From Escherichia phage VB-EcoM-WM: a DNA stretch of 64,000 nucleotides. Shown piece by piece: positions 37,142 through 38,990 of the stretch. The first letter of the stretch is position 1. Each line of letters begins with the position of its first letter. The notes under the pieces are model-generated. The model made no database searches, was not told the DNA's origin, and saw only the letters and a program-made list of their open reading frames with translations. The stretch lies in sequence record PQ014731.1. One strand, written 5' to 3'. The position numbers were made by a program, and so were the translations under genes.

Positions 37142-37855
37142 TTAAATATATTCTGTTACATCCTTGAAGCTTGAAGGCTTCATAATCTTACCTTTACTGT
37201 CGAGGAATATGATAACTTTATTTCCGTTGTAGAATTCTTCTTTAGCAACAAAACCTTCATAGCGACCATCAAAGCGTCGCTCAAGATCTTTAATCTCCAA
37301 CTCGATGATTTGTTCAGCAGGCATATCTGCACTGGCACCGTGTGAATACCGCAGATGGTTGACCCGTGCAAACTTGCTGTCATTAGATTTTAGAACCTTC
37401 CGCATCATCCCGCACACATCACCGCGAAGCTGGAACAGCAAAGCTGTTGACAACTCTGCTAAGCGGTAAGCAGACGCTCTTTGCTTAGAGGTATTTTTCG
37501 CAGCGATCAGTGTATCATAAAATTCACCGATCTTAAACTTAAGACCTCGCGGATTATCAAACAAGTTTGACCACTTTTCGTGATTATCATTAACAAGATA
37601 CGCTGCATAACTTGTGACAACGTGAAGATCGCAGGCCTCTTTTAGGAGATGATCCCCACCATCACCTTTCTCCAACTCTTCCAAAACTTCATTTAACTCT
37701 TCCTCAATGAAACTAAGTTGGAGTTCGAATGGTGTGTATGATTTTTTCACTTTAGCTGCTACACGGTTCCAATTTTCCACCCAGTTGGCAGACCAAAGGT
37801 AGTTTTCAGGTTGAGACAGTTTTTCCAGGTTGTCGATCAGTTTAGTATTCAGCAT
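37142..37855 (-). CDS. putative MazG-like nucleotide pyrophosphohydrolase
   Basis: Helical EELNEVLEEL...HLLKEACDL acidic motif resembling MazG/NTP-PPase; weak. Confidence 0.4.
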   Translation of the reverse strand: MLNTKLIDNLEKLSQPENYLWSANWVENWNRVAAKVKKSYTPFELQLSFIEEELNEVLEELEKGDGGDHLLKEACDLHVVTSYAAYLVNDNHEKWSNLFDNPRGLKFKIGEFYDTLIAAKNTSKQRASAYRLAELSTALLFQLRGDVCGMMRKVLKSNDSKFARVNHLRYSHGASADMPAEQIIELEIKDLERRFDGRYEGFVAKEEFYNGNKVIIFLDSKGKIMKPSSFKDVTEYI

Positions 37856-37869
37856 TAAAAGGCCTCCGC

Positions 37870-38631
37870 TTACAGTTCCATAAAGTTTTCTACGATGTCA
37901 ATGAATGTTTTATCAGAGAAAGCGTCAACCGCCCCGTTAAACCAAACTGGGATGCCGCGATCCTCATACTGGTAAATGTCACTACGTGAAAGACCATTCT
38001 CCCCTAAATGCTGTGAGTCGTATTTGTTAACGATTAGTAGTTTGGTCCCCTTATTACATGCAGGAAACAGCTCCCAGTTAAAATTGATAACTGTGTTGGA
38101 GCACCCTACAAGAATAACCATATCATTGCTAGTCAGAGAAGTCAACAAGTCATACATGTCTGTATACTTTGGGGCTACTTCTCCGAAGAATACTACATTA
38201 GGCTTAACCCAAGTATACTTGCTTGTATCTACCTCAGAGTATCCAATATCTTTAATGACGTCATTCCCTTCATCATCCTCATAAACTATTTCTGGCAAAT
38301 ACCCGTGGACATGTAAAATATCTTCATGTTTTACACCAGCACGCTCCAGCAAATCATCTACATTGGTGGTCAGGTTGATCACACGACCAGACCAGCGGGA
38401 ATACCACTCAGCGATCCGGAGATGTGCAAGGTTAGGATCAACACTGCCCAGAGCTACACGACGTGCATTATAAAAGTCATGCACCTTATAGTAGTTCTTG
38501 GCAAAGGTGTGGATGTTACACACCTCATCGATGCTGAAATTCTCCCACATTGCAGTGCCACCAGATCGGAAAGTTGGGATACCAGATTCAGCGCTCAAAC
38601 CAGCACCGGAGATAATGATCAGTCGTCGCAT
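37870..38631 (-). CDS. Sir2-family (sirtuin-like) NAD-dependent protein
   Basis: GAGLSAESGIPTFRSGG, TTNVDDL and HG catalytic His motifs. Confidence 0.7.
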   Translation of the reverse strand: MRRLIIISGAGLSAESGIPTFRSGGTAMWENFSIDEVCNIHTFAKNYYKVHDFYNARRVALGSVDPNLAHLRIAEWYSRWSGRVINLTTNVDDLLERAGVKHEDILHVHGYLPEIVYEDDEGNDVIKDIGYSEVDTSKYTWVKPNVVFFGEVAPKYTDMYDLLTSLTSNDMVILVGCSNTVINFNWELFPACNKGTKLLIVNKYDSQHLGENGLSRSDIYQYEDRGIPVWFNGAVDAFSDKTFIDIVENFMEL

Positions 38632-38639
38632 AAGTGTCC

Positions 38640-38990
38640 TCAGTAGATGTTTTGTTTAATCTCTATTCCAAACTTTTTAAACGAGTCAGCAGCAAGCATG
38701 AATTTACGAGCCGCTGATGGGTTAGAAGTATGCACGAAAATCTTCACGTTGTCAACTACAGGAGGCTTACCAAATACAAATTTTTCCTCCAGCATAGACA
38801 GGCAATCGTACCCTTCAAATACCTCTCCAAGATCGTTGTCCATGTGCCACTCAGAAACGCGCCTGTAGAGCTTTCCCTTATCGTTAATAAAATCCATAAA
38901 CTCAGAGGAATTCTTTAGCCAAAGAGCATCTGGGAGCCCATAATTTGACGGATCTCTCAAGTCATCCAGCCACACAATCAACTTCTTCAT
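38640..38990 (-). CDS. hypothetical protein co-transcribed with Sir2
   Basis: 116 aa; KKLIVWLDDLRDP N-terminus; 4-nt overlap with RNA-ligase-like gene. Confidence 0.4.
   Translation of the reverse strand: MKKLIVWLDDLRDPSNYGLPDALWLKNSSEFMDFINDKGKLYRRVSEWHMDNDLGEVFEGYDCLSMLEEKFVFGKPPVVDNVKIFVHTSNPSAARKFMLAADSFKKFGIEIKQNIY

Follow-up and report, generated by a model that had tools for sequence, protein, structure and literature searches.

Gene organisation of the 37142-40995 region

We analysed a stretch of 64,000 nucleotides (the window) from Escherichia phage VB-EcoM-WM (PQ014731.1), in which an earlier note, made from the sequence alone, had singled out positions 37142-38990 as an operon encoding a Sir2-family protein (sirtuin), a MazG-like protein and a small unknown protein. 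The listing of open reading frames (ORFs) had three minus-strand ORFs exactly there, at 37142-37855 (237 aa, the MazG-like protein), 37870-38631 (253 aa, the sirtuin) and 38640-38990 (116 aa), with gaps of 14 and 8 nt between them and a Shine-Dalgarno-like sequence before each one, in agreement with the proposed arrangement. The smallest product could be given a name, since it is a cREC (cyclic-phosphate-processing receiver-like) protein (Pfam PF20274 cREC_REC, E = 4.5e-14, 53.3 bits against a cut-off of 27; PHROG 1479, E = 9e-35). Together with the genes that extend up to position 40995, these three very probably constitute a known RNA end-repair module of rV5-type phages, an assignment to which we give a probability of about 0.9.

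The RNA-ligase-like gene that had been placed next to the operon does adjoin it, but it is not a mere neighbour: located at 38987-39922 on the minus strand, it overlaps the start of the cREC gene by 4 nt (ATGA) and is therefore the first gene of the transcription unit. The sequence thus predicts a four-gene operon running from the RNA ligase through cREC and the sirtuin to the MazG/dUTPase-like enzyme, and then to an intrinsic-terminator-like hairpin. This hairpin (37117-37135, minus strand) comes after the stop codon of the MazG-like gene, the last one of the operon, and consists of AGCCGGGGCGATCCCGGCT followed by TTACTTGTTT, with an 8-bp stem containing 6 GC pairs; the record of phage Gotham shows a terminator at the corresponding position. 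At the other end, a divergent intergenic control region of 100 bp (39923-40022) separates the ligase operon from a kinase and a phosphoesterase gene transcribed in the opposite direction. Plus-strand promoter-like sites were found inside this region at 39966-39994 and 39972-39999, and the search for a σ70 promoter of the minus-strand operon gave a perfect -35 hexamer (TTGACA) some 30 nt before the ligase ATG, with no convincing -10 hexamer. The GC skew passes from negative values to positive ones near 40 kb (~39900-40100), which corresponds to this point of divergent transcription, the genes upstream of the flip being on the minus strand and those downstream on the plus strand.

The ligase (311 aa) belongs to the T4 Rnl1 family (Pfam RNA_lig_T4_1, E = 8.4e-15; PHROG 562, E = 2.5e-66) and its nucleotidyl-transferase motifs are intact (K96-K-N-G, E223-G-Y and K239-I-K241). 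Because it scored only 38.9 bits against the NCBIfam T4 RnlA equivalog cut-off of 242, we consider it a divergent member of this family. In the cREC protein, residues W7, D9, D10, R12, D13, P14 and H49, as well as D51, N52, D53, L54, G55, E56, H87, S89, N90, P91, S92, A93 and K96, were invariant in nine aligned sequences, and the receiver-like acidic pocket (D9, D10, D13, D51, D53, S89 and K96) was kept in all nine. This domain was defined and named in 2021 by the Aravind group (PMC7824862), and its cyclic-phosphate phosphodiesterase activity is a prediction only (PMC7824862, PMC9503650). In the records of phage ECP32 and some others, orthologues of this gene are wrongly covered by features named 'RNA ligase 1 and tail attachment protein', and at another locus (L038, 4332-4976) cREC lies within a 214-aa ORF having an N-terminal extension of about 100 aa without obvious similarity, to be explained either by a fusion or by an erroneous start call.

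The divergent pair begins with a P-loop polynucleotide-kinase-like protein (40023-40433, plus strand; 136 aa when counted from the start codon, an ATG, of the public records) bearing the Walker A motif GLPGSGKS at residues 10-17. It matched Pfam AAA_33 (1.5e-10) and Zeta_toxin (8e-06) as well as PHROG 2071 (1.2e-58) and PHROG 505 'polynucleotide kinase' (9e-10), and the HMD-6 and Gotham records name the gene '3'-phosphatase 5'-polynucleotide kinase'. The second gene (40441-40995, plus strand) encodes a calcineurin-like metallophosphoesterase of 184 aa with the motifs D8-T-H, G57-D58, GNHD (87-90) and H142-A-H144; its NCBIfam matches, of the YfcE/PdeM type, were weak, and it is called 'phosphoesterase' in the HMD-6 and FV3 records. 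With a ligase in the operon and a kinase and a phosphoesterase diverging from it, RNA end repair is the natural frame for the locus, whose layout is that of a set for healing and sealing RNA ends to which three genes have been added. Pnkp and Rnl1 of phage T4, which counter the PrrC anticodon nuclease, likewise provide a kinase, a 3'-end phosphoesterase and an Rnl1-family ligase in a tRNA-bearing lytic coliphage. In contrast to T4, the kinase and the phosphatase of the window are separate proteins, the phosphatase is a metallophosphoesterase and not a HAD domain, and the ligase is shorter than RnlA, besides scoring far under its equivalog cut-off. To our knowledge, the T4 enzymes are accompanied neither by cREC nor by a sirtuin or a MazG-like partner.

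The same 4-kb stretch was found at 90-98% identity in 121 phage records, the V5 group included, and the window belongs to Vequintavirus (rV5/FV3-like E. coli myophages), all six genes having been annotated already by some depositors of Vequintavirus records. Between 18 and 25 'Campylobacter phage' records (MG0656xx; A147, A13b, C11; host C. jejuni) were also 90-99% identical to the Vequintavirus block; these host labels look doubtful.

The neighbourhood itself was described by Iyer, Burroughs, Anantharaman and Aravind (2022, Viruses 14:1977; PMC9503650, section 3.7.3), for which Escherichia phage V5 and Proteus phage Mydo served as prototypes. Their type 2 associates a distinct viral sirtuin clade with a T4-like tRNA ligase, cREC, a nucleotide kinase, a MazG pyrophosphatase and, sometimes, a calcineurin-like phosphoesterase, and the sirtuin was predicted to strip 2'-phosphates from RNA using NAD+, in the manner of KptA/Tpt1; in their type 1, the phosphate-end enzyme is 2H. 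All six components of type 2 were found within 37142-40995. The virus group and the six-gene set are the same, without any substantive difference, and the window represents one more isolate of type 2. The feature was thus already described in 2022 as a computational prediction, and nothing found here goes categorically beyond it. What is new with respect to that work is the definition of the operon boundaries, the clade-specific replacement of a loop in the sirtuin, the acidity of this protein, the dimeric-dUTPase-like fold assigned to the 'MazG' protein and the observation that in T5 the sirtuin comes with no RNA ligase at all. A literature search on phage sirtuins, cREC and a Tpt1-like sirtuin yielded two analyses by the Aravind group and one in-silico and transcript study (Skliros et al. 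2016), and no experimental test of the sirtuin or cREC prediction was found. The NARP3 paper, considered as well, had no relation to the sirtuin/RNA-repair block.

The sirtuin clade and its gene contexts

Domain annotation supported the assignment of the 253-aa protein to the Sir2 family, with matches much too strong to be fortuitous: Pfam SIR2 (PF02146) matched residues 9-181 with 94.6 bits against a cut-off of 24 (E = 9.3e-27), and matches to PHROG 2162 (E = 1.8e-108) and E. coli CobB (1S5P, E = 4.6e-21) were obtained. The motifs quoted in the earlier note are present, with GAG at residue 9 in GAGLSAESGIPTFRSGG (residues 9-25), TTNVDD at 88-93 and HVHG at 107-110. When 49 sequences of the phage clade were compared with 79 cellular CobB-like relatives, G9-A-G11, S13, F21-R22, N90, D92 and H109-G110 were invariant across both sets, so that all the residues of NAD chemistry are intact. 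Within the phage clade, the invariant positions were G9-A-G11, S16, G17, F21, R22, Y54, R57, N90, D92, H109 and G110; S16-G17 and the Y54/R57 pair were likewise identical in the cellular relatives. Y54 and R57 form the anion-binding Y-x-x-R pair of class III, which recognises anionic acyl groups; they align with FYHYRR of SIRT5 and FYNARR of CobB and are invariant or nearly so.

Other positions have changed. The Gln of the TQNxD motif, present in all 79 cellular sequences, is replaced by Thr (T89) in 46 of the 49 phage sequences, K143 replaces Arg in 49/49 (0/79 cellular) and F148 replaces Trp, the three substitutions (Q89T, R143K and W148F) being found in 46-49 of 49 phage and in 0-3 of 79 cellular sequences. 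The ancestral Q and T were kept by two jumbo-phage members. The loop GTS-x-x-VYPAAG, which lines the acyl-lysine/peptide cleft (sirtuin structural literature; Skliros et al. 2016), has become GCS-N-x-VINF-x-WELFP in the phage clade: the cellular relatives have Y (69/79), P (76/79), A (75/79) and A (76/79) where the phage proteins have I (48/49), N (42/49), F (47/49) and Y or N. Set against E. coli CobB (1S5P, 6RXJ) and human SIRT5, the phage sirtuin therefore has identical GAGxS, FR, N-x-D, HG and Y-x-x-R motifs but reads KPNVVFFGE instead of RPxVVWFGE, lacks the Zn cysteines, falls well under the equivalog cut-offs (121 bits for the best NCBIfam CobB equivalog/subfamily model against a cut-off of 243, with all seven models far under threshold) and is encoded in a phage RNA-repair context rather than a metabolic one. 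The preserved core and Y-x-x-R pair, together with the replaced loop and the three substitutions, point to a conserved chemistry acting through an altered substrate site, that is, on a changed substrate.

No cysteine of the Zn-ribbon CxxC pairs was found between H109 and K143 in any member of the clade, and the AF2 model showed a confident beta-hairpin module at this place. The idea that the loss of these cysteines marks a new function was rejected, because CxxC was also absent in 41 of 80 cellular CobB-like relatives. The protein is strongly acidic, with a pI of 4.84 and a net charge of about -14. Its confident AlphaFold model (pLDDT 88.5) gave CobB, SIRT5 and Sir2-Af1 as the top Foldseek matches (TM 0.72-0.75), and all 50 best structural neighbours in the PDB were class III or related deacylases. 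The sirtuin belongs to a clade of phage proteins whose origin lies among the class III (CobB/SIRT5-like) sirtuins.

The analogy with NAD-depleting anti-phage Sir2 proteins that the earlier note had drawn was not supported. There was no PADLOC match at E<=0.01 and no defence Sir2 NADase among those 50 structural neighbours, and the reading of the protein as a defence-type NADase was rejected on these grounds. It has in common with ThsA, DSR1/2, Sir2-HerA and short pAgo-Sir2 only the superfamily fold and NAD+ as a substrate, whereas it is a single-domain protein of 253 aa, without a sensor or partner domain (SLOG, HerA, pAgo or the DSR C-terminal domain), comes from a lytic phage and has RNA-repair enzymes as neighbours.

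In deposited phage records, the sirtuin was present in 976 of 50,697 (~2%), across several families, Rnl1-type ligases in 991, cREC in 343, typically adjoining an RNA ligase, and the MazG-like gene in 298; the four sets of records overlap only in part. We then compared the gene contexts of the sirtuin clade in 50 IMG/VR loci, of which three Vequintavirus-type and a dozen Mydovirus-like or related loci carry some or all of the repair partners. Several Mydovirus-like loci show the order Rnl1-cREC-kinase-Sir2-DNA ligase...MazG-like on one strand, the MazG-like gene being located about 3 kb off, beyond the DNA ligase. One jumbo contig, of 608 kb, encodes a sirtuin with 41% identity and, some 1.2 kb away from it, an Rnl1-type ligase. 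A ligase co-occurs with the sirtuin in the window, in Mydovirus-like loci and in this one jumbo-phage locus. An arginase-family gene (L050, 8818-9723; PF00491, 8.7e-76) is placed between the two genes of this contig, and in a 279-kb jumbo contig a nucleoside 2-deoxyribosyltransferase-like protein (L051, 10713-11198; PF15891, 1.2e-33) is encoded immediately after the sirtuin homologue, which is a different, NAD/nucleotide-centred pairing.

In 24 T5-like loci (T5 and 23 others), the next sizeable gene after the sirtuin encodes a HAD_SAK_2 'Swiss-army-knife RNA repair' phosphatase, and none of these loci has a ligase, kinase, cREC or MazG-like partner. The sirtuins of T5 and rV5 are 58% identical in otherwise unrelated genomes, suggesting that the gene has moved and has been kept beside RNA-end phosphoesterases twice. 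Two paralogous DUF7415 genes, T5.106 and T5.107 (L053, 7598-8428), follow Sir2 and HAD_SAK_2, are kept in the 24 T5-like loci and could also belong to the T5-type sirtuin module.

A strictly conserved Sir2-MazG-cREC operon was rejected, since the Mydovirus-like, phAPEC8/phi92-like and T5-like layouts differ. Common to the contexts of the sirtuin is an enzyme acting on terminal or cyclic phosphates, whether cREC, a metallophosphoesterase, HAD_SAK_2 or, in type 1 of Iyer et al., 2H; a Macro-type esterase was never its partner in the contexts compared. No ligase, cREC, kinase, phosphoesterase or MazG-like gene was found nearby in the 80 cellular loci scanned, which shows that the association of the sirtuin with repair genes is specific to phages.

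Candidate functions of the sirtuin and the MazG-like protein

The link of the sirtuin locus to RNA repair is well supported by the domain identities predicted for the six proteins, with their intact catalytic motifs, and by the putative operon structure; the prediction of Iyer et al. (2022), reached independently from gene neighbourhoods, agrees with it. In such a pathway, host anticodon nucleases or toxin RNases would cut tRNA or mRNA, generating 2',3'-cyclic-phosphate and 5'-OH ends. The cREC protein, the metallophosphoesterase or both would open and trim the cyclic phosphate, the kinase would phosphorylate the 5' end and Rnl1 would then seal the break. The sirtuin would move the ADP-ribose of NAD+ onto a residual RNA phosphate (the 2'-PO4 at or near the junction), which amounts to the Tpt1/KptA reaction on a sirtuin scaffold. 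Finally, cREC and the pyrophosphohydrolase would degrade the ADP-ribose-derived by-product, a role that Nudix-cREC fusions of jumbo phages are predicted to play (mechanism after Iyer et al. 2022, PMC9503650).

The recurrence of phosphate-enzyme partners, the conserved core and the remodelled loop modestly favour an ADP-ribosyl transfer of the Tpt1 kind. The full annotation of FV3 included no Macro or other esterase partner, and a phosphate-bearing ADP-ribose product fits this better than O-acyl-ADP-ribose. The mechanism of Tpt1/KptA also parallels that of sirtuins, in that an oxygen nucleophile attacks C1' and a His then activates the 2'-OH. However, the folds are unrelated, as Tpt1 belongs to the ADP-ribosyltransferase (ART) superfamily and the phage protein is a Rossmann-fold sirtuin, which is acidic and whose Tpt1-like activity is predicted only; in addition, the T5-like carriers do not have the ligase that would make the substrate. 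We therefore propose Tpt1-like, phosphate-directed chemistry for the sirtuin tentatively, at odds somewhat better than one in three.

Several observations weigh against this proposal, above all that T5 carries the sirtuin without any ligase: the whole T5 genome proved to lack genes for an RNA ligase, a polynucleotide kinase, cREC and a MazG-like protein. Rnl1-type ligases are rare in the T5-like phages of Salmonella and E. coli, which make up most of the sirtuin carriers, and a post-ligase step is therefore not a universal role of the sirtuin. In phi92/phAPEC8-like phages, the sirtuin is located tens of kb from a cREC-DNA ligase-MazG-like cluster, suggesting that much of the synteny in rV5-like myophages may be inherited and not selected. 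Furthermore, the acidity of the protein is unusual for an RNA-binding enzyme, its closest relatives in both sequence and structure are all protein deacylases, and the class III Y-x-x-R is exactly the pair that recognises succinyl- and malonyl-lysine. Lastly, the metallophosphoesterase of the block could, like Pnkp of T4, take off both the 2' and the 3' phosphates directly, in which case no 2'-PO4 would be left.

A more complete version of the proposal is also the more doubtful one. According to it, the sirtuin would act on nucleic acids and not as a protein deacylase: it would ADP-ribosylate an RNA phosphate (2'-PO4 or a terminal phosphate) and yield ADP-ribose cyclic phosphate, in convergence with Tpt1, with the remodelled VINFxWELFP loop and Y54/R57 as its RNA/phosphate site; cREC would be the first cyclic phosphodiesterase with a receiver fold, and the dUTPase-like protein would be a pyrophosphatase of ADP-ribose derivatives that removes a potentially toxic or signalling by-product.

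The part given here to the MazG-like protein depends on what this protein is. The co-transcription with a putative NTP pyrophosphohydrolase that had been suggested is in line with its assignment to the all-alpha NTP-pyrophosphohydrolase superfamily, which rests on family-level and structural evidence, because the protein of the window alone reached 14.2 bits with PRA-PH, under the Pfam threshold of 21.3. At E<=0.01, PRA-PH was matched by 27 of 38 family members and MazG by 8. A profile of 11 sequences found nothing in the PDB at E<=10, and one of 38 sequences found only marginal matches (HisE, 0.0055; MazG, 0.02). The protein has MazG/HisE-like metal-binding helices (ExxE...ExxD) in an all-alpha bundle with a dimeric-dUTPase-like fold and a short C-terminal beta-hairpin, and structure comparison gave a strong fold match to dimeric dUTPases. 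Identity to these enzymes (staphylococcal phage Dut 5MYD, C. jejuni 1W2Y and Leishmania 2YAY) is only 7-14%, and the C-terminal hairpin, with invariant K223/K226, is an addition of the phage protein. The orthologue of this gene is misnamed 'Sir2-like protein' in the record of phage SophiaRose and likewise in UniProt A0A7H0XDZ2.

The gene might be functionally independent of the sirtuin and encode a dimeric dUTPase or a related dNTP-sanitising enzyme, which would supply dUMP to the phage ThyX and keep uracil out of DNA, its position reflecting a general nucleic-acid-metabolism island that also includes the DNA ligase. We regard this as possible, though with odds clearly below even. No member of the family reached Pfam dUTPase_2 (PF08761-type; 0 of 38 at E<=0.01), PRA-PH and MazG being matched instead. 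The gene is, moreover, predicted to be co-transcribed with the ligase, cREC and sirtuin genes in Vequintavirus, stays syntenic with cREC in phAPEC8 and was counted by Iyer et al. as a regular member of the neighbourhood (PMC9503650).

For the sirtuin itself, the serious rival to the Tpt1-like reaction is that of an ordinary NAD+-dependent protein deacylase, that is, a CobB/SIRT5-like deacetylase or desuccinylase acting on host or phage proteins, for example to reactivate acetylated host enzymes (Acs) or to keep lysine-dependent phage enzymes active. Its place in the RNA-repair block would then result from shared timing or inherited synteny and not from shared chemistry. The CobB and SIRT5 matches reported above, the catalytic residues identical to those of 79 cellular CobB-like proteins (Y54/R57 included) and an acidic surface that suits lysine-rich substrates all agree with it, as does the occurrence of the gene without an RNA ligase in T5-like phages and apart from the repair block in phi92/phAPEC8-like ones. 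A CobB-like deacetylase role was also proposed for the homologue of KVP40-like Vibrio phages, whose transcription peaks at about 20 min after infection (Skliros et al. 2016). Nevertheless, the VYPAAG loop is replaced in 42-48 of the 49 phage sequences, the Gln of TQNxD has given way to Thr in nearly all of them, and the score of the protein is half the NCBIfam CobB cut-off. In addition, no Macro partner that would process O-acyl-ADP-ribose is annotated in FV3, the host already owns CobB, and the link to RNA-end phosphoesterases recurs in unrelated phages. We put the probability of this role only slightly below that of the Tpt1-like one.

Less likely than the deacylase role, and improbable altogether, is a mono-ADP-ribosyltransferase or NADase that would remodel the host through protein modification, as T4 Alt, ModA and ModB modify host proteins, or through consumption of NAD+ or of an NAD-derived immune signal: the NAD-binding and catalytic set is intact and the gene is widespread, but the protein matched neither defence-type Sir2 NADases nor the HMMs made for them, no NAD-salvage genes that would offset the loss of NAD are annotated in FV3, and bulk depletion would harm T5 itself, which has an NAD-dependent DNA ligase and so requires NAD+. 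ADP-ribosylation of proteins is established for some sirtuins, and the phage gene lacks a Macro partner of the kind seen with SirTM-type sirtuins (PMC9503650; FV3 annotation). Manipulation of NAD or nucleotide pools and modification of host proteins, as the earlier note had envisaged, are, like deacylation, not what the gene context favours.

Flanking genes, tRNA array and implications

Downstream of the operon, two small conserved minus-strand ORFs (36769-37077 and 36513-36782; PHROGs 7684 and 14585) and an ATP-dependent DNA ligase (35230-36513, minus strand; Pfam DNA_ligase_A_M and OB_2; PHROG 114) are syntenic neighbours, and in Mydovirus-like and phAPEC8-like phages, too, these genes (35230-37077 in the window) accompany the block. 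An HNH homing-endonuclease ORF (34360-35124, minus strand; Pfam HNH_3; PHROG 99) separates the DNA ligase from the lysozyme gene; it occupies the same site in phage HMD-6 and is absent from it in Gotham, the HNH of FV3 being located on the other side of the lysozyme gene. This variation looks like a mobile-element polymorphism among near-identical phages.

On the other side, about 3.5 kb away, ARAGORN identified a plus-strand array of six phage tRNA genes (43931-44654: Arg, Tyr, Ser, one odd call, Thr and Met), and these tRNAs are possible substrates of the repair. The odd call, 'tRNA-???' at 44400-44498 (plus strand), is 99 nt long with a four-base anticodon, and only five tRNAs are annotated in the equivalent array of the FV3 record; a pseudo-tRNA, a tRNA with an intron or an artefact would each account for this call.

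The locus offers a clean, compact and motif-intact operon for decisive experiments, the caveats being the acidity of the sirtuin, the absence of a ligase in T5 and the possible independent dUTPase role of the 'MazG' gene. Since the carriers of the sirtuin include T5 and many therapeutic phages of E. coli, Salmonella and Klebsiella, its role bears on the resistance of phages to tRNA-targeting and NAD-targeting defences. If the sirtuin does act on RNA phosphates, these would be a new class of substrates for sirtuins, and phages would gain a third, NAD-dependent way to finish the repair of tRNA and mRNA after attack by host RNases.

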